29,232 bases of DNA, from positions 1 to 29,232 of IMG/VR virus record IMGVR_UViG_3300030116_000681; one strand, written 5' to 3'. Every line of letters begins with the position of its first letter. Positions within the stretch are counted from its first letter, which is position 1. Positions 2,030 to 20,200 of the stretch are shown here, one piece after another. The position numbers and the translations under genes are program-made. Origin of the DNA: a virus (lineage: Duplodnaviria; Caudoviricetes). The notes beneath the pieces are model-generated. The model had not been told where the DNA came from. It saw only the letters and a list, made by a program, of their open reading frames with translations, and did no database searches.

Positions 2030-2049
2030 TACGCCTCCTTTGACTATTT

Positions 2050-2199
2050 TTATTCTTCTTCTAATTTAACATTGTCAATATGAGTAATGCCTACTTTAAT
2101 AAGCACTTGTTCATACTTGCCATCTTGTTCTATTAAGAGTTTAGGTATTGTACCTACTCCTGCGAACTCAACAGCTTTGACATTAATTGTTTTTGCCAT
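2050..2199 (-). CDS. Hypothetical protein, 49 aa (MAKTINVKAVEFAGVGTIPK…LEEE)
   Basis: Translated by hand; GAGGA SD in the end of the upstream gene; fills the intergenic gap. Confidence 0.75.
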   Translation of the reverse strand: MAKTINVKAVEFAGVGTIPKLLIEQDGKYEQVLIKVGITHIDNVKLEEE

Positions 2200-2202
2200 A
2201 TA

Positions 2203-3270: not shown

Positions 3271-3529
3271 ACTGTTTCTCCAAGTCTGCTAGCCACAAAC
3301 GAACACGACTACGGGAAACAATAAAATTATATTCTCGTTCCAATATTTCACTAACTACTCTAGCGTTAGCTTTTGTGCCTTCTTGTGCAACCCTCTTTGA
3401 TAATGTTTCAATAAAAGGAATAGCCTCTTTAGGTATTCTCTCATACCAATGGACATTACCACCATTGATTTTTCTAGTAGCCTCATCTATGAGAGAGGTT
3501 ACTTCTTTGATATTGTCTGTATTACTCAT
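3254..3529 (-). CDS. Small possible HTH DNA-binding protein
   Basis: NARVVSEILEREYNFIVSRSRVRLWL is helix-turn-helix-like; overlaps the phosphoesterase start. Confidence 0.65.
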   Translation of the reverse strand: MSNTDNIKEVTSLIDEATRKINGGNVHWYERIPKEAIPFIETLSKRVAQEGTKANARVVSEILEREYNFIVSRSRVRLWLADLEKQYAEKS

Positions 3530-3535
3530 GAGTTA

Positions 3536-3564
3536 AGTGTAATGTGGTTGTGATTTAAGTGCAA
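3536..3564 (-). promoter_or_regulatory. Sigma70-type promoter giving a leaderless mRNA
   Basis: TTGCAC (3564-3559)-17 nt-TACACT (3541-3536); ATG 3529 lies 6 nt further with no SD; T-tract upstream. Confidence 0.7.
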
Positions 3565-3601
3565 GTATTTAAAAAAAGATTATGCATATGCATATGCGTA
3601 G

Positions 3602-3654
3602 AAAAAAATAAAAAAAAGTAGAGGTGTGGAAACTATAAAAACACACCTCTACTT
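3602..3654 (-). terminator. Rho-independent terminator
   Basis: 13-bp perfect stem aagtagaggtgtg (3616-3628)/cacacctctactt (3642-3654) followed by a long U-tract on the - strand. Confidence 0.9.
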
Positions 3655-3685
3655 ATACGGCAGATAAAGTACTGAGAGTTATACC

Positions 3686-5440
3686 TTATCTTTTTACTGA
3701 TAGCTCTTTTGCTACCTGTTTAACCATTTCAATATCCTCAATCGGAATTATATTGTTCAACAATACAAAGCGTTCAATTTCTTTTAACTTGTCTTTAGCA
3801 AGAGTTTTAACTCTCCTGCTACCACTACTACCTACACCAATAACTTGTTGGTCTGATACCCAAATTCTTGGCTCTGGTTTTTCTGCTAGTAATTTCAACG
3901 CTTCAAAGTCAATAGAGTTGTTACCATAATGAGTAAGTTTGTCTATTGCATCTGTGTCCATGTTGCCGTTGTCTGCAATAATATGGACTTCACCATCATA
4001 ATTGTCTATGTCATATCCATAACCGACATAACCAGCAATCCAACTAGCTGGGAGTAGATTAACAACTTCCTCAATATCCTCTGAGGAAAAGCCCATACTA
4101 CCCGAACAGTCAATCATCATGCTACCACCTGCAACAGTCTTTCTACTTTGGAATACTTTTCTATCAGTAGTTAGTCTGTGCATGTTCTTAGGAACTACAC
4201 CACTATCGTGGTTTCTTTTCCTAAGTTCTCTAATGGCTTTATGTATTTTCTTGTTAGGACTAAACCTATTCAACTTAGCAATACCATGAACACCACCTTC
4301 GTTAGAATTGTGGTCTACAAAATGTCTGAAGTTTCTTTCATGTTTTCTATCAGCATCTTGCATAATCTTGTCAGCAAGTTCATCACTAATCTGTGGAGGT
4401 AGAACTAAACCATCAGGATTTAATTCTACTTCTTTTTCAGTAGGTTTGTACTCCTCACTAGGTAGGACAGTAGTACGAACATATCTCATGTTCCTCTCTC
4501 CCCACCAACTAGCAGTACCCATTAAGAACTTGTAAGTTCTATTTAGTCTGTATCTAATTTGCTTAGATGATAGTTTGACTTGAAATGACCTTGTATGTCC
4601 TACCTCACTGTCATACCTGTACTTATAATCATATGTACTGTATCTTGAAACATATCTCATAGTTTCTTGTACAGTATCTTTAACTTTGCCGATTACATTG
4701 TGTATGTATCTAACATCATCATCAGCTACATCAACAGGTATATCATAAGAAAGCAAACTTCTTACAATGTTTTCTAGCTTAGACTTATCTATCAAGTCAT
4801 ACCTACCTAATGACAAGTTGTATAAAGCTAGGTCTTTCAACAGTTTGAAGTAGAACTTTTCAAGACTTTTGTGCTGATAGAGTTCTCTAACAGCTCTGTA
4901 TATCTTGAGTTCTACATCTGTTGTATCGGGATAAACACCAATCTTGTTACCCCAACCACCAAACTGTTTCCATAGGTTGTAGAAGTAAAGTTCATTTCTA
5001 CCAATTACTTTATCCTCTGCTTCTTCATCAGAACAGTCATAGTCCATAGCATACTTCTCTACTTTGTTTTTGAGTTTGTTATATCTTGTATAACCACCCA
5101 TTTTCTCAAGAGTATTCTTAACTCTGATAAGTGCATACTTGTAACCATTTAGCATTTGTGCTATGTAAAGTATCTCTGGATTTTTCCTTAGAAACTTCAT
5201 ACCACGATACAATATCTTTGCAAAGATACCTGCTTGAACAACGAACTGCCTATCCATTTCATTACTTGTTGTAAGCCAAGTAGGGATATTGATATCGTTC
5301 TTGTCCTCGTATATGTGTGGAGTGTCTGTATAAACAACTTTGTGTTGCCTTACATCATTACCAAACAATGACATGTTCGGTAATGATACAGGTAGTCCAC
5401 TTACTTTAGCTTTCCTAACTTTGAATAAACTATTCATCAT
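3686..5440 (-). CDS. VWA/MIDAS-domain protein, partner of the MoxR AAA+ ATPase
   Basis: C-terminal MMIDCSGSM (DxSxS) and RIWVSD; adjacent to the AAA gene. Start may be 5437. Confidence 0.8.
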   Translation of the reverse strand: MMNSLFKVRKAKVSGLPVSLPNMSLFGNDVRQHKVVYTDTPHIYEDKNDINIPTWLTTSNEMDRQFVVQAGIFAKILYRGMKFLRKNPEILYIAQMLNGYKYALIRVKNTLEKMGGYTRYNKLKNKVEKYAMDYDCSDEEAEDKVIGRNELYFYNLWKQFGGWGNKIGVYPDTTDVELKIYRAVRELYQHKSLEKFYFKLLKDLALYNLSLGRYDLIDKSKLENIVRSLLSYDIPVDVADDDVRYIHNVIGKVKDTVQETMRYVSRYSTYDYKYRYDSEVGHTRSFQVKLSSKQIRYRLNRTYKFLMGTASWWGERNMRYVRTTVLPSEEYKPTEKEVELNPDGLVLPPQISDELADKIMQDADRKHERNFRHFVDHNSNEGGVHGIAKLNRFSPNKKIHKAIRELRKRNHDSGVVPKNMHRLTTDRKVFQSRKTVAGGSMMIDCSGSMGFSSEDIEEVVNLLPASWIAGYVGYGYDIDNYDGEVHIIADNGNMDTDAIDKLTHYGNNSIDFEALKLLAEKPEPRIWVSDQQVIGVGSSGSRRVKTLAKDKLKEIERFVLLNNIIPIEDIEMVKQVAKELSVKR

Positions 5441-6167
5441 CAGTTTCTTCTACATAACCATTTTCGGTTTGTATACCCAAAGCATTTAGAACAGCAAATT
5501 GTTCCTCATCATTTGGAAACAACAACCCAACTGCAACTTCGGTTTTCACTCCGTTGTCCATTAGTTTTTGTAGCTCAACCCACTTACGAACAGAGAAGTT
5601 TCTCTTGTCTGTATCTAGGTATATAGATGAAAGTCTGTTACCCAAAGAACTCAATGCCTCGGGATGTACAGTATCAATGTTTAGCTTTACAGGAAACCTA
5701 TCAGCTAAAGCCTCAGGTAAGTCATCAGGAGTTCCGTTCATTGTAGCAACAACTTGGAAACTATCCATTGGTCTTACATACTCAGCTTCATCATTAGGTA
5801 GATTGAAACCTGCAAACTCTTTATCATCAAGCAACGCATGGAGAAATGTTTGCACATCTGCACCTGCATGGTCTATCTCATTGATAACAAGTCTTGCACC
5901 TTCTTTAAATGCTCTTACACCATTACCATCTTTCCAACGAAAACCACCATCACTAGTAGCAATATAATGCCCCATGAGTTCAGTAGCCGTACTGTCTGCT
6001 GTTAGTGTAATGTTGTAAGTACCTTGTCCTTTCCTCAAACCAAATCTGTTGGCTTGATATGTTTTACCTGTACCTGCAACTCCATACAGAAGTATTCTAT
6101 CTGCACTTTGAATTACGGCACTTAGCTTATCCCAACAATTCATGTCGGCATAATCTTTTTCTTCCAT
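5430..6167 (-). CDS. MoxR-family AAA+ ATPase (CbbQ/NorQ/CobS-like)
   Basis: Walker A GVAGTGKT, ELMG…FRWKDG, Walker B variant LVINEID, sensor VVATMN, arginine finger ALADRF. Confidence 0.9.
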   Translation of the reverse strand: MEEKDYADMNCWDKLSAVIQSADRILLYGVAGTGKTYQANRFGLRKGQGTYNITLTADSTATELMGHYIATSDGGFRWKDGNGVRAFKEGARLVINEIDHAGADVQTFLHALLDDKEFAGFNLPNDEAEYVRPMDSFQVVATMNGTPDDLPEALADRFPVKLNIDTVHPEALSSLGNRLSSIYLDTDKRNFSVRKWVELQKLMDNGVKTEVAVGLLFPNDEEQFAVLNALGIQTENGYVEETDDE

Positions 6168-6679
6168 TATTCTTCCTCTCTCTTTAGCATTTCTTCAAAC
6201 TGAGAAATGACATCAGTTGTTAGTTTGTCTTTATCAATGTTATTCCAAACATCTTTCCTGTCTTTTCTAGCTAGAGTTTCATCTATCCACCTAACATCAG
6301 GTATGTTTGGTAGTATCTCTAGTGCCTCAATAGGAACATCAACAGCAACTTGTGAATACTCTGTTTCCAATAGAGTTCCATCTTTGCTTTTGATAATAAC
6401 CTCAAAGAACATACGGACATGAGTATCTACTCTTTCCCCTGCTCTGTGATAATGAGGCATAGCCATTAGCAATACAACAGGAAACCTGTCATCTGCTACA
6501 ACTTTCATATCGCTTTCAATAGTTTCATCAAGAAACTCTGGAAGGATTTGTCTGTTGTACTCTAGGTCAATAGCTAGTCCATTGAGATATTTGAGTATCT
6601 CTACTGTGATAGCACAGTTCTTTAGTCTTTCACTAAATTCAGCAATGTCTTTACTATCTCCTTCTATTCCACTAGGCAT
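6167..6679 (-). CDS. Hypothetical protein
   Basis: AGGAG SD; TAATG coupling to the AAA gene. Confidence 0.8.
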   Translation of the reverse strand: MPSGIEGDSKDIAEFSERLKNCAITVEILKYLNGLAIDLEYNRQILPEFLDETIESDMKVVADDRFPVVLLMAMPHYHRAGERVDTHVRMFFEVIIKSKDGTLLETEYSQVAVDVPIEALEILPNIPDVRWIDETLARKDRKDVWNNIDKDKLTTDVISQFEEMLKREEE

Positions 6680-7019
6680 TATCTCTCCTCACTACTTTTG
6701 CATACAATCTAACAGTTCCACCTTTCTCGGTAGCGTTTTGTCTTATAGCAGTTTTCAACTCGCACTCAGGATATAGCTCATCAAATTGCTTCGTGTAATA
6801 CACACATGAAGTTCTAATAGAGTTAGCTTTGTTAGTAGTTCTCTTACCACCACCTACATTATGTTCCTCATGTATGAGAAATACTTTTCCTATATTCGCC
6901 ATTAGCAAACTAACTGTTGAATTAGTAAAGTATTTTTTCTGTCTTCCGTGTAATACACCACGCTTTGTATAAGCAGGAAACTCTGTTCCTACCATCTTTA
7001 CTTCAAATTCATCACTCAT
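6672..7019 (-). CDS. Hypothetical protein
   Basis: AAGGAGG SD at ~7026-7032; several tandem ATG/TTG starts (7019-7025). Confidence 0.8.
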   Translation of the reverse strand: MSDEFEVKMVGTEFPAYTKRGVLHGRQKKYFTNSTVSLLMANIGKVFLIHEEHNVGGGKRTTNKANSIRTSCVYYTKQFDELYPECELKTAIRQNATEKGGTVRLYAKVVRRDNA

Positions 7020-7281
7020 CATCAACCTCCTTTAGATATGGTGATTTAGCAAACATTGTCGGCTTGTAAGTAAATTCTTTTGCTTTTCTCTTTGCTTCAG
7101 AACTTACACTAAAGATATAATCTTTCGTTCCAACTTTGTGTGCTGTTAATAACTTAGACATCAAGCTAATTGTTTCTATTGCTTCTTCTCTAGTAACTTC
7201 ACTATCAAAGACATAATCAACAATTAATGTATTGACATCTTTTGTACTGCTTCCATCTATGAACTCATAAATGTCGCTCAT
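7012..7281 (-). CDS. Hypothetical protein
   Basis: GAGGAGG SD; TAATG coupling. Confidence 0.8.
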   Translation of the reverse strand: MSDIYEFIDGSSTKDVNTLIVDYVFDSEVTREEAIETISLMSKLLTAHKVGTKDYIFSVSSEAKRKAKEFTYKPTMFAKSPYLKEVDDE

Positions 7282-7712
7282 TATTCCTCCTCAAGTAACT
7301 CGTGTTGCATACCTGCTATAGTAAACATCTCTCTAGCATCACCCCACGCTTTCTTGAAGTCTTCTATTTCTTCATCTGTCAATTCCTCTGGAACATTGAA
7401 CATTGGATTAGACTGCATAGCTTTCAGCACATCCTCAGCACTTTCTTTTCTAGAAAGTTCCTCTGCAAAATTAACAAACTCCTTGTTAGATAACATTTGT
7501 ACTTGTATCTTTTCTGTACAATCCTGAGGTAGTTCCCCATTAAGTACAATAGTCATAAGCATTTTGCTTACTTCCATTAGTTTGCTATCAAGGATTTCTA
7601 TTCTTTGTTTGAGATACTCAGTATTACCCATGAGTTTCAACATCATTTCAATCATGCCGTCATCATCAGCTAGATACTCTTTCATCTCTAACATGTCCTT
7701 TGGTAAGGTCAT
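7281..7712 (-). CDS. Hypothetical acidic, Met-rich helical protein
   Basis: GAGGAGG SD; TAATG coupling at both ends. Confidence 0.8.
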   Translation of the reverse strand: MTLPKDMLEMKEYLADDDGMIEMMLKLMGNTEYLKQRIEILDSKLMEVSKMLMTIVLNGELPQDCTEKIQVQMLSNKEFVNFAEELSRKESAEDVLKAMQSNPMFNVPEELTDEEIEDFKKAWGDAREMFTIAGMQHELLEEE

Positions 7713-8242
7713 TATTCCTCCTCTTGTTTAGTAGATACCATTTTCAAAAAGTTCTCTACATCAGCACTAAACTTCTCAGGTTGAATTGCACCTGCAATAA
7801 CATTGTTTAGTATGTGTGGATTACCTATTGAAATAACATCTGGTTGAGTTCTGTATATGGCTTGTAAAAATGCTTTCACAAACTCATCATCATCACTCTC
7901 TATCATTTCACAAAAGCTATTGACTGTTCTTTCTAAGTCATCTTTTTCAATAGCTTTTCTAAATAGTTCTGCAATCGTGGATAGTCCTGCACTTACAGCT
8001 ATCTGAATATGTGTTTCCCACATCTCAGCCATAGCTACTACAGGATTAGTAGCTTCAACATATACTTTAGTTGTATCTACCTTTCCATTTTCATCAGGCT
8101 CTACATCATGGAGTACGCTTACTCCATAAGGTATTATGCCCATAGTTGCACGGAACTTACTAAAATGGTCAAAGCCCATTTCCTCAATTACATTTATCTG
8201 TTCATCAAAGTCGTCTTGGTTATCGGTAGCACCCATGCCCAT
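7712..8242 (-). CDS. Hypothetical acidic protein (start revised to MGMGATD…)
   Basis: AAAGGAGG SD 4-5 nt before ATG 8242 and TAATG coupling favour this start over TTG 8299. Confidence 0.8.
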   Translation of the reverse strand: MGMGATDNQDDFDEQINVIEEMGFDHFSKFRATMGIIPYGVSVLHDVEPDENGKVDTTKVYVEATNPVVAMAEMWETHIQIAVSAGLSTIAELFRKAIEKDDLERTVNSFCEMIESDDDEFVKAFLQAIYRTQPDVISIGNPHILNNVIAGAIQPEKFSADVENFLKMVSTKQEEE

Positions 8243-8385
8243 TACAACCTCCTTTTTGTGTTGAGTTTTCTTACACTTCCATACCCACAAGTCCAACACT
8301 TTACTATGTTGAGTACAGATGATTTTACATTGGCTAATTGTCCGACAACAGACATCTTGCCCTGCTTACAGTTATCACATATCAT
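8242..8385 (-). CDS. Zinc-ribbon microprotein, 47 aa (MICDNCKQG…KCWTCGYG…)
   Basis: Two CxxC motifs; AGAGGAG SD; stop overlaps the next ATG. Confidence 0.8.
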   Translation of the reverse strand: MICDNCKQGKMSVVGQLANVKSSVLNIVKCWTCGYGSVRKLNTKRRL

Positions 8386-8406
8386 TACTCTCTCCTCTGA
8401 TATAAA

Positions 8407-8771
8407 CAGAAAACCACAAACTATCGCTAGTCTGTGGTTTATCTGCGTGTGTGAAATTACCTATGTGTTGTAGTTGTATGTTTCATAGAACACACATAGG
8501 ATTTTGCTACAAGATAAGTAGCTTGATACCTACTGCTTTTGTCCATGTATATACAACCTGCTTCCTTATGTATATACAAACAATAGGCATCAAGCTACCT
8601 ACTTTCAGTCGTTACTAAACAGGGCATAGAAAAGTAACTCCTACTTATAGATAGCTATTACTTACTGCATGAGGAGTTGTTGCATGTTATCGCGTACTAT
8701 ACAGAAAGGGATAACCCCACGCAGTAAGTAATAATTACTATTGAGGGTTTTAATCCACAACCAAAACCCTC
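8407..8771 (-). ncRNA. Tandem array of long RNA hairpins (structured RNA or processing region)
   Basis: Stems at 8407-8445, 8460-8500, 8518-8598, 8656-8733, 8743-8771; + strand A·C mismatches become G·U on the - strand; GCGA tetraloop. Confidence 0.7.
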
Positions 8772-8779
8772 TATACTAA

Positions 8780-9244
8780 TCATCTATCCTTACGGCAACT
8801 TTCACATAATCTTTTACGACCAAAAGCTTTTGGTAAGACTATGAAACAGTTGGTACATAGCTTATTAGTTTGCTCAACAACTTGCTTATCATAGCTGTTG
8901 GGCGACCACTCAGCATCAATAACTCCGAAGGGATTGTTACTATCAGCAGGAACTATACCTTCTCTTGTCAATCTGCTAAGTCGTTTCATCTTTTGTTCTA
9001 GTTCTCTATCCTGTTCTCTACACTCGTAGCAACGAGGACTTAGTACATCAGTTCTTTTCTTACAAGATACACACTCATGAGTAGGATAGTTAGCACCATC
9101 TACTTCTCTGTTGTATTCTCCTGTACCTTTGACTAGTGGTAGTCCTGTATCTGCAAATACAAGATTACCATTAGTATCATCTACTCCTACAAAGGCTTTC
9201 TTTGTAGTAGGATACATAGGCTTTCTATAATTCTTAGGCATCAC
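8780..9244 (-). CDS. Double zinc-finger protein
   Basis: CVSC…CYEC and CTNC…CESC; GAAAGGAG SD at ~9248-9255; start 9244 or 9241. Confidence 0.8.
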   Translation of the reverse strand: MMPKNYRKPMYPTTKKAFVGVDDTNGNLVFADTGLPLVKGTGEYNREVDGANYPTHECVSCKKRTDVLSPRCYECREQDRELEQKMKRLSRLTREGIVPADSNNPFGVIDAEWSPNSYDKQVVEQTNKLCTNCFIVLPKAFGRKRLCESCRKDR

Positions 9245-9553
9245 ACACTCCTTTCATATAACATATGCAACATAAGAAATAATAAACACGAAAACAAATT
9301 CGCAAAGCCAAAGTTAGCTTGGCGAAAAAATTTCACAACTTGCTTATATATATCAAGATGACTTGACATCCCCTTTCGCATCACGCGTGGTAATGGGGAA
9401 TGGCTCTAGTTCGCATATGCGAAAGAGAAAAAAAATTTTAGCTATGTTTCTTGTTTACTTTGCATTTGTAATGAGGGAGATAATATATACTAGGACAAAA
9501 CCACACACACAAGGTTAGGCTATGGTATATATACATTTGATTTACTCGGGCAT

Positions 9554-9598
9554 AAAAAAAACCTAAGTGCTACCTATAATTAAATAAGTAGCACCTAG
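9554..9598 (-). terminator. Rho-independent terminator
   Basis: ctaagtgctac/gtagcacctag stem (G·U on the - strand) followed by U8, downstream of gene 9626-10012. Confidence 0.85.
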
Positions 9599-9625
9599 AT
9601 TATTAAGATAGTTTGTAGGTGTAGC

Positions 9626-10012
9626 TTATTGCTTAGACCAACTATCCATTGTAGCTTTTACTTCAGCTAGGTTACGCACTCCTGATATTTCTTTAGCTAC
9701 TTGATTAGTACCTAGAATTGAAAGCAATTCTTTTGGTAGAGTACCATTCTTGTTTAGCTTGTATTTACCTTTCTTGAAGGTTTCTGGTGCGTTCTCGCAT
9801 ATATCTTTGAACTGTTGATATGCTTGATAGCTGATAAGAGTACCAACTTCTTTGAAGTCGAACTTATCTCTTCTAACACATATGTGATATGAGTTTTTAT
9901 CATCTTTGTGTATAGAGTTTTTACCTGTAAGTTTGAAACCTACGAAATTAGTATTACCTAATCCCATGAGGTCGTATACCTTATCAGCTTTGATATAGTC
10001 ATTTTTAGCCAT
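9626..10012 (-). CDS. Hypothetical basic protein, first gene of the early arm
   Basis: AGAAAGGA SD at 10021-10028; followed by its own terminator. Confidence 0.8.
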   Translation of the reverse strand: MAKNDYIKADKVYDLMGLGNTNFVGFKLTGKNSIHKDDKNSYHICVRRDKFDFKEVGTLISYQAYQQFKDICENAPETFKKGKYKLNKNGTLPKELLSILGTNQVAKEISGVRNLAEVKATMDSWSKQ

Positions 10013-10897
10013 TTTATTTATCCTTTCTATATAGCTTAAATTAACTGAAACTCATCACCTGACAAGTTCCATTGGATTTTTATAAGCATGCTTGTCAAGT
10101 GAGTTTATATCTTATTCTCCGAAGGATATAACTGTTATAAAGGAAATTTACTAGTATGCTATCCAAAAACAAAGAACTTGTCGCTACGCTGGATAATCGA
10201 AACAATGGAATGCTCGTGCTTTAGAAGAAGAGAATAGATGAATTGTATTGTATATATATTATGTATGGTATTCAAGAGAAGGTAGGCATTTATTTTACAA
10301 AACACTACATATGGATACAGCAAGTCAAATATCTACTACATATAGAGGCACACTAACTATAAACAAAACGTAAGTGCCTGTATGTATTCACTGTGTGAGT
10401 GTGCACGCAATTCTGGTCTTTTAATGCGGGGTGGGGGTGTGGTATATACGTAAGTAATCAAGAAATTACTGGTAATTCTGACTACAAAAAAAGTTAAGGG
10501 AAGTCGATTAATTTGGTATTGAAACTCTATTGCTAGAGTAAGTTACAGGCTGTTACAGGCATTACCAAAGTTAAGATAATCAACTTCCCTAATGTAGTAT
10601 ATTAGCATACTTGCTGGTAAAAAAGAAGTAAAATACCTCTTTTTTATTGTGCGTTCGATTAGGGGGGATTTCGAACATAGCGGACATATATGCTACGCAT
10701 ATAAAAAAAGTTGAATTTTTTACTTTCTAAGGTCCTTGGGTACTGACTTTGTGGTAATCCCAGTCCATCTTGTGAGTAAGATGCAGTCAGCTTTTTGCCG
10801 TCCGATAGCTCTTACCTGTAACCTTATAGTTGTAAAAAACTATTTGTGTAATTCACTATACTGCTATAATAATTTTAATCAAGTTACAGGAGATAAA
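10013..10897. other. Divergent non-coding control region (possible origin, packaging site or genome end)
   Basis: ~880 nt without a credible ORF between opposite arms; G-tracts at 10426-10442 and 10662-10667, short repeats and hairpins. Confidence 0.55.
10862..10870 (+). promoter_or_regulatory. Extended -10 promoter TGcTATAAT
   Basis: Consensus TGnTATAAT 27 nt upstream of ATG 10898. Confidence 0.7.
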
Positions 10898-11428
10898 ATG
10901 TTTGATTTCGAAGAACAGCTAGCTATCGGTAAAAAGGGTGAACTACTAGTTAAGAACTATTATGAATCACAAAAGACTGATGAAGGCAAAATAAAATTTA
11001 TAGTACGAGATGCACGTAAAGATGAACAGCTAAAAGGAGCAGACTTTTTTATTCTAAATAATCAATTGGGTACTAGATATGTCGAGGTAAAAACCGACAC
11101 CAGGGCGGAAGAGACAGGGAATGTAGCACTAGAAATACAAGTAGTGTATGGGGATACAAAGACTATTGGATGTGCGTTAAAAACATTCCCTGACTTTCTT
11201 TTCTACTGGATATATCCAACTAACCAACTTCTTTACTGGACACCTGATGCGTTAATACCATATATCATTGACTGGATTATTGAAGATAAATACAGGATTG
11301 TAGATGCAGAAAATAAAAATTTTTTTTCACGCTCTTTGATAGTGCCTATTGAGGACTTACTTGCGACCGGGGTAGCACACTCGATAAGCGTAAGCTACCA
11401 TCTTTTAGACTTAGTGGAGACAAGCTAG
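10898..11428 (+). CDS. PD-(D/E)xK nuclease superfamily protein
   Basis: GKKGE…GADF…YVEVKTD…TGNVALE; AGGAG SD before ATG 10898 (the track's TTG 10736 start is unlikely). Confidence 0.8.
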   Translation: MFDFEEQLAIGKKGELLVKNYYESQKTDEGKIKFIVRDARKDEQLKGADFFILNNQLGTRYVEVKTDTRAEETGNVALEIQVVYGDTKTIGCALKTFPDFLFYWIYPTNQLLYWTPDALIPYIIDWIIEDKYRIVDAENKNFFSRSLIVPIEDLLATGVAHSISVSYHLLDLVETS

Positions 11429-11460
11429 GTAAAGGAGGAAAACCTAGCCCATCTCCTCTA
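11412..11460 (-). ncRNA. Candidate antisense sRNA hairpin with anti-SD loop
   Basis: 15-bp stem (11416-11430/11442-11456) is continuous only on the - strand (3 G·U); loop UUUCCUCCUUU. Confidence 0.55.
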
Positions 11461-11470
11461 TAATTATAGA
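11457..11470. promoter_or_regulatory. Palindromic bidirectional -10 element TCTATAATTATAGA
   Basis: TATAAT on + at 11459-11464 (6 nt before ATG 11471) and on - at 11468-11463 (6 nt before the hairpin's 5' G at 11456). Confidence 0.6.
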
Positions 11471-11629
11471 ATGAGAGAAATCACAAAGTGTAAGCTTTGT
11501 AAACAGAACCTGAAGTTATTCCGACTTAACAAAAAATGTGTTAATCTAGGATGTACAGAATATAACAAGCTAATTCGAAGGAGAGTTAATGTACGGAAAA
11601 CCAATGAAAAAAGGCAAGAAGAAGAATAA
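11471..11629 (+). CDS. Zinc-binding microprotein, 52 aa (CKLC…CVNLGC)
   Basis: Hand translation; probable leaderless start. Confidence 0.65.
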   Translation: MREITKCKLCKQNLKLFRLNKKCVNLGCTEYNKLIRRRVNVRKTNEKRQEEE

Positions 11630-11654
11630 ACGTAGGGGCGGTAAGAAGCTCTAA
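11589..11654 (+). CDS. Basic micropeptide MYGKPMKKGKKKNKRRGGKKL
   Basis: AAGGAG SD at 11578-11583; TAATG coupling to 11654. Confidence 0.65.
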   Translation: MYGKPMKKGKKKNKRRGGKKL

Positions 11655-11857
11655 TGCCTAGTATAAAAAAAGGAGTGAATGTGTTCAGTAGTCCAGTAAC
11701 TCTAAAGGAGTGGGCTATTGACCTTTCTGAAGCATGTGGTTCTGTTTTAATTAACAAGAAACCAAACATATCTAAGATAGATACGTTAGTAGAAAAATTT
11801 GTTATAGATTATAACGAGAATATGGAGAAGATGAATGCCACCGAAGAAGAAGAGTAG
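11654..11857 (+). CDS. Hypothetical protein
   Basis: Coupled start; contains the GGAG SD for the next gene. Confidence 0.75.
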   Translation: MPSIKKGVNVFSSPVTLKEWAIDLSEACGSVLINKKPNISKIDTLVEKFVIDYNENMEKMNATEEEE

Positions 11858-12122
11858 TTCAAGAAAAAAACCTGCTAGAAAGCCTATCAATGCAAAAACT
11901 AAAGCAACGCTACAAAAGAAGGCTAAGAATAGTAAGTATACGTATGGGCAACTTGCACAAGTATATAGGCGTGGACAAGGTGCGTATCTTTCTTCAGGAA
12001 GTAAGTCAGCTTCTATGGCAGCTTGGGCTATGGGTCGAGTTAACTCTTTTATTAGGGGTGGTCATTCTCAAGATAATGATATAAAGAAGAAGGGTAAATC
12101 TCGTGCCAAAAAAAAGAAGTAG
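11835..12122 (+). CDS. Basic protein with QVYRRGxGA…WAMGRVNSF motif (DUF5824-like by recollection)
   Basis: K/R-rich termini; core motif recalled from marine viral proteins, not verified. Confidence 0.7.
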   Translation: MPPKKKSSSRKKPARKPINAKTKATLQKKAKNSKYTYGQLAQVYRRGQGAYLSSGSKSASMAAWAMGRVNSFIRGGHSQDNDIKKKGKSRAKKKK

Positions 12123-12300
12123 GAGGAAAGTTAAATATGAAAAGGGCGTTCCAGCTAAATATCTTAAAAATAAAAAAAACAGTAAAGATGCTGTGGCACG
12201 CGAAATACGAAGTACAGCTAAAGCTTATAAAGAGGGAAGATACATAGATTTGAAAAAAGTACAGAAATCTAGAGCTACACGTAAAAAGAGGCGTAAATGA
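12103..12300 (+). CDS. Small highly basic protein
   Basis: GTG start, GVPAKYL core, ATGA coupling to the next gene. Confidence 0.7.
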   Translation: MPKKRSRRKVKYEKGVPAKYLKNKKNSKDAVAREIRSTAKAYKEGRYIDLKKVQKSRATRKKRRK

Positions 12301-12470
12301 AAATTAAAGGTGTTGATGCAAGTAAGTTAACTAAAAGACAACAAACTGCTTTAAAAAAACATTCTAAGCATCATACTAAAAAGCATATACAATATATGGT
12401 AAACTCTATGAAACGTGGTTCTAGTTTTTCTAAATCACATGTAAACGCACAGAAGAAGGTAGGTAAATAA
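12297..12470 (+). CDS. Small basic His-rich protein, 57 aa (…KKHSKHHTKKH…FSKSH…KKVGK)
   Basis: Hand translation; ATGA and TAATG couplings. Confidence 0.8.
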   Translation: MKIKGVDASKLTKRQQTALKKHSKHHTKKHIQYMVNSMKRGSSFSKSHVNAQKKVGK

Positions 12471-12604
12471 TGCCAAAAGGTAACGGACAGTATTCTGAAG
12501 CTCAGAAAAAAATTGCTGCTGTAGCACCACCGTATGACAAAATTACAGGAGCTGATTTTAAAAAGCTACGTCAAAACGGTAATAGAAAACCAAAGATGAG
12601 CTAA
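12470..12604 (+). CDS. Small basic protein, 44 aa (…KITGADFKKLR…)
   Basis: Hand translation; TAATG couplings at both ends. Confidence 0.8.
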   Translation: MPKGNGQYSEAQKKIAAVAPPYDKITGADFKKLRQNGNRKPKMS

Positions 12605-12726
12605 TGGCTAAAGTTAGTTGGATGTGGAAAGGTAAGAGATACTACGGTACTCTTATAAGAGAAACAAAGACTCATAAGTTTGCAAGAACTAAAAATGGTA
12701 AAATTAAAAAAATTAAAAAAAAATGA
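12604..12726 (+). CDS. Small basic protein, 40 aa (MAKVSWMWKGKRYYG…)
   Basis: Hand translation; TAATG-coupled start. Confidence 0.75.
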   Translation: MAKVSWMWKGKRYYGTLIRETKTHKFARTKNGKIKKIKKK

Positions 12727-12778
12727 AAAGCGTAAAAGAATTTATGCAGGAAATCCTAATTGGGCAGGAGATGATTGA
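12695..12778 (+). CDS. Micro-ORF, 27 aa (MVKLKKLKKNEKRKRIYAGNPNWAGDD)
   Basis: TGATG overlap with ATG 12778; no SD; a competing frame exists at 12723-12791. Confidence 0.4.
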   Translation: MVKLKKLKKNEKRKRIYAGNPNWAGDD

Positions 12779-13068
12779 TGTCACACGCTAATAGAAAAAA
12801 AGCTTTATTAAAGAAACATGGACTAAAGGGTGTTAATAAACCAAAGCGTACACCTAAGCATCCTAAGAAATCACATGTTGTATTAGCACAAGAAGGACAC
12901 CAACTTAAATTAATTAGATTTGGACAACAAGGTGTATCAGGTGCAGGTAAGAATCCTAAGACTGCTGCACAGAAAGCTAGACGTAAATCTTTTAAAGCCA
13001 GGCATGCAAAAAATATTAAGAAGGGCAAAATGTCCGCAGCATACTGGGCTAACAAAACTAAATGGTAA
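12778..13068 (+). CDS. Basic protein with IRFGQ…RRKSFKARH…YWA..KW motif
   Basis: AGGAG SD before ATG 12778; motif familiar from aquatic viral small proteins. Confidence 0.8.
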   Translation: MSHANRKKALLKKHGLKGVNKPKRTPKHPKKSHVVLAQEGHQLKLIRFGQQGVSGAGKNPKTAAQKARRKSFKARHAKNIKKGKMSAAYWANKTKW

Positions 13069-14975
13069 ATAATGTAATCTGCATAGCAGATGAATGTACA
13101 GCACAATTACCACCAGGCAAAACTAAATACTGTTCTCAAAAATGTTACAGAAGAGAATCTATGCGTATGTATAGAGCTAAGAAAGCTGGTAAAGAATATA
13201 CACCACCAAAGAAATCTGTTAACGAACCTAAATCTGCAACTGTAAGAAGAGGTGCATTATATAACAAATTTAAAGACGAAGGTTATGCATTAGATTTAAT
13301 AAACGAAAATATACAACAACAAGAAGTAGCTGATGCATTGTCTTGTTCTACTGCACATGTTTCTAGAATGTTAGCTGCTTATAGAGAAGATTTAGAAAAA
13401 GACATACAAGCAAAAGATTGGGAAGTATCTGATGATGCAAAGCAATCACTAGAAGACTTTGTAAATTTTAGAGATAGATACTTTCTTACAGAACAAGGAA
13501 TTAAGTTTGATACTGCAGACTTTCATAACAAATGGATAAAGTCAATTAACAAAGCATTACTAGAAGGTGGACAGCAAATGATACTAAGCCCACCTAGACA
13601 TGGCAAGACAGAACTACTTATACATTTTGTAGTTTGGCTTATATGTAGAAACCCAAACATAAGAATTATGTGGGTAGGTGGTAACGAAGATATTGCAAAG
13701 AACTCTGTGTCATCTGTAATAGATACATTAGAAAACAATGAAAAACTAAAAGAAGATTTCTGCGGACCAGGTGGACAGTTTAAACCAGCTAATAGAACTG
13801 GTAAGTCTTGGTCACAAAATGGATTTACAGTATCTACAAGAACTGTATCAGGTATTAAGTCACCAACAATGATTGGTATAGGTAGAGGTGGTAAGATACT
13901 TTCTCGTGACTGTGACATTATTATTGCTGATGACATTGAAGACCACAGTTCTACTATGCAACCCGCATCAAGAAACAATACAAAAAACTGGTGGACTACA
14001 ACATTAGGTTCTCGTAAAGAGGAACATACTGCAATGGTAATTATTGGTTCAAGACAGCATCCTGATGATTTATATTCTGCATTATTAGAAAACGAAGCAT
14101 GGGAAACAATAGTAGAAGAAGCACATGATTCTATGTGTACTAAATCAGAACTAGAAGAAGAAGAACATGTTGATTGTATGTTGTGGTCAGATAAAAGAAC
14201 TTTTAAATGGTTAATGAATCGTAAAAGAGATTCTATGACTACAGGTGGTCTTAAGAACTTTGAGATGGTTTATCTTAACAAAGCATTTTCACAAGCTGCT
14301 AGATTGTTTAATCCTGAAATGATAGCTGAATGTTATGTACCAAGTATGAATATAGGTACAGTTCCTAATGGTTCATACTTAGTTGCAGGTCTTGACCCTG
14401 CTGCTACAGGTTATCAAGCAGGATTTCTTTGGGCAGTAGAAACAGTAAATCATGAAATAAAACTTACAATGGTTGATTTAGACAATCATCTTGGTGGTGG
14501 TCTAGATGAAGCATTTGAGTTAATTAGAAGATGGCACGAAATGTATAACTGTTATCACTGGGTAATAGAAGAAAATGGATTTCAAAAAGCTATTAGACAA
14601 GATAAAACAATAAAAGAATATTGTAATGTACAAGGAATTAAATTAGAAGGACACGAAACTCATAAAAACAAATGGGATGAAAGATTTGGTGTTACAAGTT
14701 TAGCTCCTATGTTTAATGAAGGTATGATTGAATTACCTTTTGCAGATGGAGAAGCACAAGACAAAACTACATTGTATACAAAACAACTTACATACTTTGC
14801 CTCAAAAGGTAAAGGTGGTAGAGGATACAAGAGTGACATAGTCATGGCTAGTTGGTTTCCAATGAAAGTGATTAGAACCTTGACAAAACTTACCTATGCT
14901 GATATAGGAATTGACTACACTCCTAGCTTTGATGGTTATAATAGTATACAATGGGATGATATACCTTGGAGATAA
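13062..14975 (+). CDS. terL: Terminase large subunit with N-terminal Zn-finger and HTH
   Basis: Walker A PPRHGKT, Walker B IIADD, coupling motif IGSR, nuclease GLDPA, IEENGFQ and SDIVMA. Confidence 0.92.
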   Translation: MVNNVICIADECTAQLPPGKTKYCSQKCYRRESMRMYRAKKAGKEYTPPKKSVNEPKSATVRRGALYNKFKDEGYALDLINENIQQQEVADALSCSTAHVSRMLAAYREDLEKDIQAKDWEVSDDAKQSLEDFVNFRDRYFLTEQGIKFDTADFHNKWIKSINKALLEGGQQMILSPPRHGKTELLIHFVVWLICRNPNIRIMWVGGNEDIAKNSVSSVIDTLENNEKLKEDFCGPGGQFKPANRTGKSWSQNGFTVSTRTVSGIKSPTMIGIGRGGKILSRDCDIIIADDIEDHSSTMQPASRNNTKNWWTTTLGSRKEEHTAMVIIGSRQHPDDLYSALLENEAWETIVEEAHDSMCTKSELEEEEHVDCMLWSDKRTFKWLMNRKRDSMTTGGLKNFEMVYLNKAFSQAARLFNPEMIAECYVPSMNIGTVPNGSYLVAGLDPAATGYQAGFLWAVETVNHEIKLTMVDLDNHLGGGLDEAFELIRRWHEMYNCYHWVIEENGFQKAIRQDKTIKEYCNVQGIKLEGHETHKNKWDERFGVTSLAPMFNEGMIELPFADGEAQDKTTLYTKQLTYFASKGKGGRGYKSDIVMASWFPMKVIRTLTKLTYADIGIDYTPSFDGYNSIQWDDIPWR

Positions 14976-16703
14976 ATGAAACCGCAAGAAATAATTGAGA
15001 GAGCATCATATCTCAAAAGAATGCATGATGATTCTTTAATAGATAGAGCAAGATACAGAGCAATTTTAAATGGTGGAGAAGATGGAATAAGACAATTACT
15101 TGGTCCTGGACTAGATAATAACGAAGCACATACAATACCAGCACCTAACTTAATGTTGTCTGCTTTAGATAGACTTGCACAGAAAATAGGTAAAACACCC
15201 TCTTTAGATGTACATATTACAAATGGTAGAGATTCTCAAAGAAACAAAGTTAAAAAAGATAAATTAGAAAGAATTATTACTGCATACGATAAGATGCAAG
15301 AACTAGAGTTACAGTTACCACAAGTAGCTAGATGGTTACCAGGTTATGGATTTGCAGTATGGGTTATTACTACAAAGCAAGATATGAATGGACAAATGTA
15401 TCCATGTGCTGAATTAAGAAACCCTTATGACTGTTTTCCTGGATATTACGGAAATAAACAAAAACCACAAGAATTAGCAATTATACAAAAAGTTCCTATA
15501 CAAAACTTAATAAAAATGTATCCGGAACTAAAAGCTTACTATGAACAAAAAGATTCAGAAGATACATCATACGATAGCTACAACCTTAGATATACAGATG
15601 ATGGTAGTTGGGAAAACTCAGATGAGAATGGTGATGTAATTCTTGAATATATGAATATAGAAGGTACATACATTGTGCATGTTGCTTCTAAAAAGATAGT
15701 AGATTTTGTACCTAACCCACTTAAGTCAGGTCCTTCTTTTGTTATTGCTAAGAGATTTAGTTTTGATAGATTACAAGGACAGTTTGACCAAGTTGTAGGA
15801 CTTATGGCATCTATGGCAAAGATAAACATTTTATCTGTTATAGCTATGGAAGATGCTGTATTTACAGAAACAAACATAATTGGTGAAATAGAATCAGGAC
15901 AATACAGAAAAGGTAGAAATTCAATAAACTATCTAACACCTGGTTCACAAATAGTAAAACCAACTACTAACTTGCCATATCAATTATTTGAGCAAGTAGG
16001 TAGATTAGAAAGACAATTAAGAGTTGTCGCTGGATATCCAGTTCAAGACGATGCTATATCACCAAATTCATTTGTAACTGGTAGAGGTCTAGAAGAGCTG
16101 GAGTCCGGTGTAGGTCAAATGGTTAACGAGTATCACACAATACTTGAATACGCATTACAGGAGGTGGATTCAAAGAGATTAGAGTTAGATGAAGTACTTT
16201 TTGGTAAAACAAGAAAACCAATATCAGGTACTTACAAAGGAGCTTCTTTCTCAGAATCATATACTCCTTCTACTGATATAGACATGAACTATGTCACAAG
16301 AAGAAAGTATGGAGCTATGGCTTCCTTTGATGCACCAAATAAGATAATCACAGGGCTGCAATTATTAAATGCAGGTATTATCGATAGAGAAACATTACAA
16401 CAAGAGATGGATGGTTTAGAAAATCTTACACAGATAAATGAAAGAATTACTAAACAAAAGACAGAAGATATTTTATATCAGATGTTGTTACAACAATCTC
16501 AACAAGGTGACAAAGCTGCAATGATGGCTGTTGTTGAAATATATAATAATCCAAAAAATATTGGAAATGTATTAGAAAAGTTCTTTAGTGCATCAGGAGA
16601 AGAACCTAGTCCTGAAGAACAAGCCTTAATGCAACAACAAGCTATGCAACAACAAGCAGGTCCACCTAATTTAGCAGCATTACTAGGAGGTCAAGTTGGC
16701 TAA
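14976..16703 (+). CDS. Portal (head-tail connector) protein
   Basis: 575 aa immediately after terL; Q-rich C-terminal tail typical of podoviral portals. Confidence 0.85.
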   Translation: MKPQEIIERASYLKRMHDDSLIDRARYRAILNGGEDGIRQLLGPGLDNNEAHTIPAPNLMLSALDRLAQKIGKTPSLDVHITNGRDSQRNKVKKDKLERIITAYDKMQELELQLPQVARWLPGYGFAVWVITTKQDMNGQMYPCAELRNPYDCFPGYYGNKQKPQELAIIQKVPIQNLIKMYPELKAYYEQKDSEDTSYDSYNLRYTDDGSWENSDENGDVILEYMNIEGTYIVHVASKKIVDFVPNPLKSGPSFVIAKRFSFDRLQGQFDQVVGLMASMAKINILSVIAMEDAVFTETNIIGEIESGQYRKGRNSINYLTPGSQIVKPTTNLPYQLFEQVGRLERQLRVVAGYPVQDDAISPNSFVTGRGLEELESGVGQMVNEYHTILEYALQEVDSKRLELDEVLFGKTRKPISGTYKGASFSESYTPSTDIDMNYVTRRKYGAMASFDAPNKIITGLQLLNAGIIDRETLQQEMDGLENLTQINERITKQKTEDILYQMLLQQSQQGDKAAMMAVVEIYNNPKNIGNVLEKFFSASGEEPSPEEQALMQQQAMQQQAGPPNLAALLGGQVG

Positions 16704-17278: not shown

Positions 17279-20200
17279 ATGGCATATAGATGGACATTTG
17301 ATGCTCCTTGGGAAGATAATGACAATCAAGATTGGAAAGAAGAGTATCTAGCACAAGCTGCTCAGATGGAAGAGTTCTTCAGACAAAATCAAAACATTCC
17401 ACAGAATATGGAAAACATTTCTAAAACTTTTGGTTTCCTACCTAAAGACGTACAAGTAGCAGGTGCAATGATGGGATTGACTGCTGAAAGTCCTGAATTT
17501 ACAGCACTAGTAGATAAGTTTATGGAGAAAGAAACTTCTTGGTGGGATAGAACGAAAGCTATAACTAGAGGTGCAGTAAGAACTGCAGTAGTTGGTATGG
17601 AGTCTGCATCACAGTTTGTAAAGAAGTTTGGTACTGGTGCTATGAAATACTATGCAAAAAGAGAACTTAACCCTATGTTAGCTTTTACAGGTATTGGAAC
17701 ACTTATGCCTTTGATTGACCCTGCAGGTGTAGCAGAGATAAGGCAGTCTATAAAAGACCAAGGACCTACACTAGCAACTAGAGCTATAGAAGAACTTAGA
17801 GCTGGACGTAAAGTAAACCTAGGTGAAGGATATTTTGGTAACTCTACTGTTGCAGAAGATACAGAAATATATAAAGAACTTGTAGGTAGAGGTGCTAATC
17901 CTGATGAAGTAAAAGGTGTAATACAAGATTATTATGGCAAGCCTATATCACAATTAGAGTTTGAAAGTAGAGAAGGACAGTCAGGAACTTATAGAGGTAG
18001 AAAAGGTACTGTTAAGTTATCTCCTGGTCGTGTTACAGCAGTAGAAGTATTTGAACCAGGAACAAGAGGTTTCAATATTATGTCAGGTATTATTGATGCA
18101 GCTTACACAATATTTACAGACCCAACAACATACGTAGGTGCAGGATTTGCAAAAGCCGGAAGAGTATCTAGAACTTTTAATAAAACATATGAACTGCAAA
18201 ATGCAGGACTTATAGATAAAGCTGTAAGAAAAGTTGTACATACTCCTACTGCAGAAGCTTGGTTTAATACCAAAGTAGGTGATGATATTGCACAAATGTT
18301 TGCTGATGCTAAATCATATGATGAAATAGAAATACTTATGAAAGGTCAAGGTAAATCTGATGCTTTACTTTATAGAGAACTTAGAGATGCAACAGATAAA
18401 CAAGTCGTAAAAGATAAACTTATAGAAGCTATAAAAGACCCATTAGCAGGTATTAACGATAGATTTGATGCAAACAGTTTATTGTTCAAAGGTTCTTTAT
18501 CAAGATTAGGTGCAGGTCTTAGATATGGAGATGCACAAAAAGCAGTAGGTATGAAAACTGCTATGAAACTAAAAGGTCAGACAGGTATCTTTAACAGATT
18601 GTTTGATGAGTTTCCAGCACCTAACTTAAATACAGATGATTTAAATCAAACATTCTTTGAACTAAAAGACTGGATGAAGTTTTCTAAAGTAGATGATGAT
18701 GTTGCAAACAAAGCATTAGATAGAATTGCAGATGCAATTACTGATGATAACTTAAAAACATTAGAAGGTTTACCTGCATCATTACAAAAATTAAATATGG
18801 TACTTGATATATATTCAGGTGAAGGTGGTGTACTTAGACACATTATGGATAAATACAATGCATTAGGTATACCTGATGAAGTTGTAAATCAAGTAGGTAA
18901 GTTTGTTGCATCAGTTGATGAAGCACGTAAATACTTTTATACAAAGTATGGAGAAGAAGCTTGGTCAGGACAAAAGATAGATATTGAAGATGCATTAGGT
19001 AATGACCTAAACAAAATAGAGTTTGATATGAAAGAGTCTATAGGTGCATTAAACAGAATAGTTAATGAAGTAAATATAAATATTAAAGGTGTAAAAAATA
19101 ATCAACAACTACAACAGTTGTTTGTAGATACAGTTGAAGGTGTTGGACGAGTACCTGCAGATGTAGCAGATGCTGATGTCATACCTACAAAAATTATATC
19201 AGGTGGTAATGTCGGTGTTGATTTAGAAGCTTTACGTGTAGCTAAAGAACTTAACATAGAAACAGGTGGTAAAGGTACTCCTGGTCTTACAGTTTCATCA
19301 CAAGGTGCAAAGACAGGTAGATATGATGATTTAGCTCCTGAACTCACAGAACTAGGTGTAGAAGATGCAAGACAGTTTGAAATAGATGAACTTAAAGGAA
19401 CTATACAATCTTTAGAAAATACACAGTTAGCAAGACAAGGTACTAGAAAAGTTGCTAGGCAAGTATTACCACAACTTGATGACCAATTAGTTAGAAATGA
19501 AAGAACTCGTCAAGGTTTATCAAAAGGTTTAAAAAACTCTCAGTTATCTCCTGCTGCTTCTGAAGAAGATATATTAGCAGCAATTAAAAAAGGTTTAGTA
19601 GCTAGAGATTTACTTGAAGAATTAAATGTAAAACTTGCAGGTAAATTAACTAGAGGAGTTACACAAGCAGGTAAAAGAATAAAAGAAACATCTGTACAAG
19701 TTCCTAGTAAAGATAGAGATATACTTAGAGACATAGCACAGTATGAAGCTGAATCTAGAATACTTAGATTTGTAAGAGGATTACAAGAAACAAAGGTAGA
19801 CCCTAACGACCCACTTAAAGTAATACAGCAATTAGATTATGAAGATTTTGATTTGATAGGTTATCAAAAAGAATTAAAAGCTATGGCTAAAGAATCTAAT
19901 CAGATATCCGCAAAGATTAGCAAAATAAAAGCAGACATAGAAACTAGGAAAAAAGATTTAAATGATGATTCATTAGTTAGAAAAGTTAGGAAACTACAAA
20001 AAGAAGTTGATGAATTAGAAAGACCTGACTTTGGGGATGTTATGCCTCAAGGTAAATACTTTGCTAGAAGAAGTATTAGAAATGTAGATGAATCAAATGC
20101 AACAGTTATTATATATAACTCAGCTACTAATCCAGCAGGTAAAGGAACTAGAGGAACTTATAACTATGCAACTAGAGGTAATTGGAATACAAAAGCAAAA

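Follow-up and report, generated by a model that had tools for sequence, protein, structure and literature searches.

A covarying phage hairpin with an invariant anti-Shine-Dalgarno loop, possibly a small RNA that damps early translation

Why would a phage carry, antisense to its local genes, a hairpin whose loop repeats the anti-Shine-Dalgarno (anti-SD) sequence of 16S rRNA? The question arises from the window, by which we mean the whole stretch of 29,232 nucleotides that was analysed, a virus record of 29 kb with a GC content of about 35% and an estimated completeness of 70%. Its minus-strand block (1268-10012) encodes an exonuclease and an AAA ATPase among others, and its plus-strand block starts at 10898 and includes the terminase large subunit (13062-14975); these blocks are called early and late here, respectively, a naming inferred from gene content. 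The late block opens with a 176-aa putative nuclease (10898..11428, +), assigned to the PD-(D/E)XK type from its D...EVK motif. Its matches are weak (PHROG 13596 with an E-value of 3.5e-4, and Pfam NOV_C with 0.002, below the cut-off), and searches returned no PDB relative and no solid family or structure match. Next comes a 52-aa cysteine-rich protein (11471..11629, +), with homologues at 45-70% in eight more distant records, whose leaderless gene is the divergent partner of the hairpin.

The core hairpin, termed RNA-1, lies at 11416..11456 on the minus strand, with a predicted 5' end at about 11456, and is recognized by fold, conservation and covariation. The first-pass annotation of this DNA had described a 15-bp stem with three consecutive wobble pairs present on the minus strand only, and folding both strands confirmed it: minus-strand positions 11456-11442 pair with 11430-11416, with the wobbles U-G, G-U and G-U in succession. 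The minus-strand fold has an MFE of -26.0 and a z-score of -4.99, a value as good being reached by none of 200 shuffles. The plus strand folds worse (MFE -19.4, z -3.01), since the wobble positions there turn into a 3x3 internal loop. The 11-nt loop (11431..11441, -) falls in invariant alignment columns and reads CCUCCUUU at 11438-11431, and these eight bases are fully unpaired in the prediction for each of five assumed 3' ends. The annotated identity with the 16S anti-SD is correct, as CCUCCUUU matches the 16S tail of the probable host group. Likewise, the plus-strand complement AAAGGAGG (11431-11438) had been said to lack a start codon at ribosome-binding distance, and none is found 3-12 nt behind it. 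As for a small peptide led by the opposite-strand AAAGGAGG or GGAAGGAG, start codons exist in some variants, and by eye no reading frame is kept.

Two TATAAT boxes accompany the hairpin. One is the predicted -10 box of RNA-1 (11463..11468, -), 6 nt before the first G, and the other is the predicted -10 box of the leaderless gene at 11471 (11459..11464, +), 6 nt before its ATG. Both are supplied by a palindrome at 11457-11470, so that the sharing of one palindrome by the two strands, proposed earlier, is evident from the sequence. Neither box has a -35 box in the window, and neither is among the 10 promoter-like sites returned by a promoter scan. A -10-like box 6-7 nt before the ATG of the leaderless gene also occurs in relatives, with or without the hairpin, and in the window's lineage the minus-strand box is partly a by-product of the plus-strand one. 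Across 31 variants of the hairpin, a -10 box lies upstream on the CCUCC strand in 30, versus 4 of the 31 mirror windows, and an extended TGn -10 is present in 17/17 variants of a second lineage (lineage B, below) versus 0/17 mirror windows. Hence, a promoter belonging to RNA-1 itself is recognizable at the consensus level only.

The 31 variants, distinct from one another, were hand-chosen from among related marine phages and, given this kinship, counts made on them overstate the number of independent events. In an alignment of 27 distinct cores, 84% of 216 cells are paired, a figure that is lowered by 4 of 28 alignment rows being one base out of register, and two-sided changes affect six of the eight pairs. 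Such changes number 51, versus 22 in shuffles; the covariation score is 0.59 versus 0.24, with 0/500 shuffles as high; and sliding the stem partners lowers pairing to 32-63%. RNAalifold recovers the helix unaided. Over the inner eight pairs of the 31 variants, the CCUCC strand has 213 Watson-Crick, 19 G-U, 0 A-C and 16 other combinations, and this strand is the more stable one in 30 variants, with one tie. Invariance extends past the SD-pairing core to the flanking U's and the closing G-C pairs. A metagenome scan asking only for TATAAT and the loop yielded 59 hits with 21 distinct cores; although not asked for, a TG was found in 53 hits, a second hairpin in 53 and an anti-SD seed on the other strand in 53, and the stem has at least 7 of 8 pairs in 51. 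These values indicate that the anti-SD loop is invariant and that the stems covary, which is what the first-pass annotation had called for in relatives; the fold of the RNA-1 hairpin is conserved and specific to one strand.

The element is nevertheless dispensable. Of 25 phage records searched with model R1, 17 have a single copy and 8 have none, six of these 8 being at least 90% complete. In lineage A, to which the window belongs and which was sampled as 46 loci from a scan with the upstream nuclease-like protein, the hairpin directly follows the nuclease gene in 27 loci and is missing at that site in 19; in L017 and L021 it is cleanly deleted and the promoter of the leaderless gene is retained. 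Where present, the loop is fixed while the outer stems are entirely different, and three variants gain a second helix that gives a branched fold. The divergent 52-aa gene is not obligatory beside it: the hairpin is retained with either a divergent leaderless gene or a convergent gene next to it, several relatives having the latter. In the window, the last 13 nt of the nuclease gene overlap the 3' arm of the hairpin. The earlier suggestion that the RNA may also be antisense to the nuclease finds no support, given that the nuclease stop codon precedes the stem in L007, L009, L018 and L031, and that lineage B carries the element at a different site. Nor does RNA-1 have the long perfect complementarity to a fixed opposite-strand target that marks a cis-antisense RNA.

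Lineage B, whose terminase is 51-54% identical to the window's, was found by a motif scan of viral contigs that returned 107 loci. Many of these are chance matches in sequence coding for GKGGKP, recognized as such by their fold and context and left out. In this lineage the hairpin occupies a second site, between the gene of a 406-aa exonuclease and the early operon. Among 80 exonuclease loci fetched, the core is present in 53 of 59 at an identity of at least 81%, the remaining six being cut by contig ends, and in none of 21 at about 63%. On the CCUCC strand the order is extended -10 box, anti-SD hairpin and second hairpin with a partly U-rich tail; the second hairpin, which bears no anti-SD motif, is found in 17/17 lineage-B variants, with a clear U-run in some only. 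In most loci RNA-1 precedes the first early gene and has the same orientation. It had been proposed that RNA-1 is switched on together with the late genes. This proposal is unsupported, the lineage-B unit adjoining the early operon behind an extended -10 box of its own; the late-coupled promoter of the window is not general.

Back to back with RNA-1, all 53 lineage-B loci have a candidate second unit, RNA-2, which would be read from an overlapping TTGACA-type promoter. It comprises a hairpin, a stretch with the anti-SD seed CUCCUUCC or CACCUCCA, and a terminator hairpin with a U-run, and is located at L203:4330-4470 and equivalents, the seed differing in L112, L122 and L217. The RNA-2 variant of L112/L122, as well as the unit of a lineage C, lacks UCCUU and keeps CUCC, the SD complement. 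In four of the 53 loci (L228, L232, L254 and L255) the two-unit cassette is inverted with respect to the flanking genes, and RNA-1 then points away from the early operon. Further candidates for small RNAs, which combine a -10 box and an open CCUCC on different scaffolds, were seen at about 19140-19215 (+) of G291:C36 and at about 30455-30540 (+) of G022, both with a stem, and after the nuclease gene in L072. These three occur in relatives without RNA-1.

Regarding the 3' end, no U-run follows the RNA-1 stem on either strand of the window, no separate terminator lies beside RNA-1 in lineage A, and the stem is not among the window's five terminator-like sites, found by a scan that allows loops of 3-8 only. 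RNA-1 does not show the GC-rich stem, short loop and U-run of an intrinsic terminator, U-less actinobacterial terminators being still conceivable; if the stem itself terminates the RNA, its end would be at or just past 11416. The RNA would measure about 45 nt in the window, and about 80 nt in lineage B. Of 11 sequencing runs, all in the form of unstranded contigs, eight were compared with the window. Six RNA-library runs among them cover parts of 10500-12500 and leave 11371-11504 uncovered, and a run of guessed type spans the whole stretch in a DNA-like manner. This coverage is uninformative on RNA-1 because an RNA of 45-80 nt would be lost in such data.

Whether an anti-SD loop could act selectively depends on the host, which is likely Ca. 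Actinomarinales, the name being inferred. The lineage-B exonuclease matches 823 phage records, 816 of which are named for actinobacterial genera in a collection rich in actinophages, and the best 15 terminase matches are Streptomyces phages at 24-25%. Among 401 genomes of the class of G026 (labelled Acidimicrobiia), a 1.1-Mb genome, G291, contains two phage contigs of the RNA-1 phage family, with terminases at 70% and 52%, which could be co-binned; such a terminase is found in one of 65 genomes of the G291 family. Genomes of 0.6-1.1 Mb with 34% GC fit Ca. Actinomarinales as characterized in the accessible part of PMC7771536. Other markers were of little help: WhiB is found in none of the 25 phage records, a scan of genome contigs for host markers gave one match at 24%, the protein encoded at 1268-2029 has 15 weak matches that point to no host (11 of them Lactobacillus phages), and tRNA and tmRNA calls at a relaxed score are unconvincing as host markers. 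One of them is a tRNA-like element in G006 (about 16217-16294, -), detected at a relaxed ARAGORN score, whose anticodon is unassignable. A host origin of RNA-1 was also considered and rejected. Model R1 has hits in 0/5 and 1/65 host-family genomes, with 96-150 candidates scored per genome, and the sole hit, inside a long reading frame, is due to chance.

In four 1.1-Mb genomes of the probable host group, the 16S rRNA ends in CACCUCCUUUCU, which shares CCUCCUUU with the loop. GGAGG precedes only 2.2% of 953 genes on the 1.0-Mb contig G031:C1 of this group (internal control 1.9%), and a duplex with the loop of -9 kcal/mol or better is predicted for 7.2% of them (control 2.8%), versus 25% of 720 phage genes by the same method. 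These counts, which come from a single contig whose organism may or may not host the window's phage, suggest that the phage commonly starts translation at SD sites and that the probable host rarely does. The SD signal is nearly absent before the genes of G031:C1 despite a canonical anti-SD in the 16S, and a search for bS21 was negative. No mention of near-absent SD use in this group was found in the accessible parts of PMC7771536 and 10.64898/2026.04.03.716425.

The first-pass annotation had named SD-led host or early messages as potential targets. The SD sites that it cited on the minus strand each have a start codon 3-12 nt behind: that of gene 1268-2029 at 2034..2041 (predicted duplex with the loop of -11.7 kcal/mol), that of the gene ending at 6672 at 7026..7033 (-12.5) and that of gene 7712-8239 at 8248..8255 (-12.1). 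Two further candidates on this strand pair more strongly, namely the SD of gene 7012-7281 at 7284..7292 (-14.0) and that of gene 7281-7712 at 7715..7723 (-15.1), the best match to the loop in the window. With hand-picked gene starts, a duplex with the loop of -9 kcal/mol or better is predicted for 9 of the window's 14 early genes versus 3 of its 22 late ones (p = 0.005); when the 16S tail takes the place of the loop, the contrast has p = 0.049. Early messages of the window have the stronger SD sites, in keeping with the annotation. The accompanying split into SD-led and leaderless genes is too sharp: most late genes do have an SD site, though a weak one, and a second gene that looks leaderless, 3254-3529 (-), belongs to the early strand, its -35 and -10-like boxes ending 6 nt before the ATG.

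With automatic gene calls, the early/late contrast is significant in only one of nine other genomes, G001, which is near-identical to the window (p 0.05-0.92 in the rest), and G016, which is without RNA-1, shows the same trend. Genes pairing at -9 kcal/mol or better make up 25.1% of 720 in the 17 records with RNA-1 and 22.6% of 393 in the 8 records without it, and the base following GGAGG does not differ between the two groups. Since neither quantity differs, there is no sign of co-evolution between RNA-1 and its candidate targets. For RNA-2 a weak hint exists, confounded by kinship: start-associated GGAAGGAG occurs 9 times in the 6 records with the seed versus 7 times in 21 others, and TGGAGGTG, which corresponds to the variant seed, occurs twice in the one record with it versus twice in the other 26.

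Taken together, RNA-1 is most likely an anti-SD small RNA encoded by the phage, and we give an even chance to the reading that it is a trans-acting small RNA that damps SD-led translation, mainly of the phage's own early genes. Host RNA polymerase would transcribe it from its own -10 box, and its loop would pair in trans with strong AGGAG(G) ribosome-binding sites and damp their translation. A trans-pairing RNA is the simplest account of the features found because the anti-SD is fixed, the stem is free to vary, a promoter and a terminator bracket the unit, and its site and orientation are mobile. With SD sites rarely used by the probable host, the action of such an RNA would be selective. The strongest SD sites in the infected cell would be the early ones of the phage, and damping of early translation is accordingly preferred over the broad host shut-off that had been envisaged, an idea that fits poorly with a host of this kind. 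RNA-1 would hit the replication and recombination block of the phage and a small set of highly expressed host genes, sparing most late and most host genes. It might serve as an early-to-late timer or keep an infecting or carried phage quiet. We also raise, tentatively and as possible at best, a wider reading, in which a streamlined host largely without SD initiation lets phage early genes use strong SD sites as a private address, controlled by a toolkit of RNAs that mimic the 16S tail. Besides RNA-1, the toolkit would include RNA-2, its back-to-back neighbour, and two or more other scaffolds, the seeds being adapted to variants of the SD.

The reach of invariance beyond the SD-pairing core, to flanking U's and closing G-C pairs, together with the lack of visible co-evolution with mRNA targets, would also be expected if the loop were read by a protein, RNA-1 being a 16S-tail mimic that titrates a ribosomal protein, an initiation component or an anti-SD-cutting host nuclease. 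The site of MazF-mt3 in the 16S anti-SD, UCCUU (accessible part of PMC5408214), is present in both RNA-1 and the common RNA-2, and low-SD hosts can sequester the anti-SD with bS21, bS18 and bS6 (accessible part of PMC7797042). We consider a protein reader unlikely, though worth keeping in view: the PemK/MazF family was found in 0/65 genomes of the probable host family and bS21 in 0/5, these genomes being incomplete, and UCCUU is dispensed with in L112/L122 RNA-2 and the lineage-C unit, where CUCC is kept. An unlikely account, too, is that the hairpin is a cis element of a longer minus-strand transcript, either a terminator or 3' stabiliser or a leader hairpin pairing with the SD of the next gene. 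Relatives of the L007 and L031 types, in which the hairpin is directly behind the stop codon of a convergent minus-strand gene, would suit the former, and the in-line position before the first early gene in most lineage-B loci the latter. Moreover, among 47 distinct hits in unrelated phages outside the family, 8 have the same loop on top of a strong hairpin, compared with an expectation of 2.4% from cross-paired arms; most of these hairpins precede a same-strand start codon by 10-45 nt. In the window, though, no minus-strand gene ends at the hairpin and none follows for 1.4 kb, and in lineage B RNA-1 is directed away from the early operon at the inverted loci, with the unit ended by a separate hairpin whose tail is U-rich. 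Terminators need no invariant loop, and a terminator on the plus strand, which the first-pass annotation had named as what the stem might simply be, is disfavoured by the 19 G-U versus 0 A-C combinations and the missing U-run.

If RNA-1 acts in trans on SD sites, its main targets could instead be a few SD-led host messages. About 7% of probable-host genes pair well, the best including AAAGGAGA-type sites before genes that, from their N-termini, we take to encode EF-Tu, EF-Ts, RpoA/B, ClpP, ABC binding proteins and rhodopsin, and the UUUA flank of the loop fits A-rich host sites. This is rather improbable, as the early sites of the phage pair more strongly (to -15 kcal/mol) than most host sites and would compete, and the host figures derive from one contig, which may come from an organism other than the host of the window's phage. 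Finally, the hairpin always lies beside divergent or overlapping promoter boxes, and G-T is tolerated better than A-C in DNA hairpins too, as would suit a site that acts as DNA, bound by a protein or extruded as a single-stranded hairpin in a divergent promoter region. A double-stranded operator would need no covarying arms, and the one-strand order of promoter, hairpin and terminator resembles a transcript, which makes a role at the DNA level very improbable.

To our knowledge, each phage small RNA characterised so far acts on a single message or a few specific ones. In Firmicutes, the host RNAs RsaE and RoxS act on SD sites through unpaired UCCC or C-rich stretches, with several motifs each. 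The T4 RegB nuclease cuts GGAG in SD sites and so removes early messages; its logic equals that of the switch proposed for RNA-1, RegB being a protein nuclease and RNA-1 an RNA. 6C RNAs consist of paired hairpins with long C runs in their loops, whereas the longest C run in the RNA-1 loop is 2 and no Rfam match to them exists. As described in the accessible part of PMC6486639, 6C sRNA of Mycobacterium and other high-GC Gram-positives, which occurs in the phylum of the probable host, binds several mRNAs through C-rich loops without Hfq or ProQ; it differs from RNA-1 in being host-encoded, with more than one C-rich loop and no copy of the 16S tail. The alphaproteobacterial cuckoo RNAs (alpha-r14, RSs0680) share with RNA-1 an invariant anti-SD-like loop and compensating stems, and occlusion of ribosome-binding sites was proposed for them (accessible part of PMC4615179). 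Cuckoo RNAs, encoded on chromosomes and plasmids, consist of 2-4 hairpins that all contain CCUCCUCCC, while RNA-1 has a single CCUCCUUU loop, is phage-borne with a probably actinobacterial host, and does not match their Rfam model. RNA-1 would work like cuckoo and 6C RNAs and is a member of neither.

Among phage systems, c4 of P1/P7 and sar of P22 are, according to the accessible part of PMC12197685, small RNAs that block translation near the ribosome-binding site, c4 likely with loop-displayed seeds. They target one antirepressor message by specific complementarity, in contrast with the generic SD complement of RNA-1, which has many possible targets. In cluster K mycobacteriophages, non-structural genes share a motif at the position of the ribosome-binding site (SAS), of 13 bp and extending beyond 16S pairing, and four K1 phages have a single opposite-orientation copy away from gene starts, whether for an RNA or a protein binder being left open (accessible part of PMC3203893). 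The opposite-strand SD copy described here sits in a covarying hairpin behind a -10 box, and the parallel with the reversed SAS is suggestive. RNA-1 phages, however, share only the SD itself; AAAGGAGG precedes 3 of the 36 called genes of the window, its one copy away from a start is the loop, and no longer shared motif was seen.

At gathering score, neither the window nor 138 kb of sequence from relatives has an Rfam match, the weaker hits being of miRNA type or due to chance. Literature searches found no description of the RNA-1 family, or of a phage RNA displaying a generic anti-SD for a class of genes; the accessible parts of a 2025 review of phage sRNAs (PMC12197685) and of PMC5737381 name none. 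The motif could be among the 8,495 candidate structured RNAs catalogued from IMG/VR (PMC10690425); a search of part of that catalogue gave no match.

Were RNA-1 to work as proposed, an RNA of 45-80 nt would do the job of the T4 RegB nuclease in phages whose probable host group is among the most abundant actinobacteria of the surface ocean, and the very strong SD sites of phages in a host that barely uses them would be explained. RNA-1 would be a minimal chaperone-free repressor; chaperone-free pairing through C-rich loops is reported for the actinobacterial 6C RNA in the accessible part of PMC6486639. If the wider toolkit reading were true, a whole phage gene class would be under a translational switch made of RNA only, and there would be a testable candidate for the reader of the start-associated sequences of actinophages.

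Several observations touch on the surroundings of RNA-1. A 67-aa gene (11654-11857, +), in the late block here, has homologues that are the second gene of the lineage-B early operon, and RNA-1 is within about 200-700 nt of it or its homologue in both lineages; no family match was found for the protein. Before the terminase, 11835-13068 (+) encodes a series of very small lysine-rich proteins, four of which match PHROGs of unknown function, and contigs from RNA libraries cover 11640-12230 in this region. Upstream of the early operon, 8400-8760 (-) contains an array of long RNA-like stems (MFE -83.4 and z -8.0 for 8400-8630). Within it, a 66-nt unit (8591-8656) has blastn matches in 12 of 26 other records and is flanked by long variable stems with repeated ends. 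With its fixed closing helix and conserved internal loops it looks ribozyme-like, and in Rfam it has weak miRNA-type hits only.

Hairpins with the same or nearly the same loop were also seen in the unrelated phages L103/L347, L128/L389, L403, L406, L414, L424, L427, L158 and L188, of 29-65% GC. They are mostly 10-45 nt before a same-strand start (of the small terminase, or after capsid and tail genes), with one right after a tRNA gene, and, being enriched over chance, possibly represent a cis use of the same motif. A separate, near-invariant intergenic hairpin with a C-rich loop and a U-run, outside the window, follows a late gene taken for the major capsid gene in G001 (-920), G002 (-6192), G003 (+35220), G004 (-19470), G005 (-3418) and G016 (+17738).
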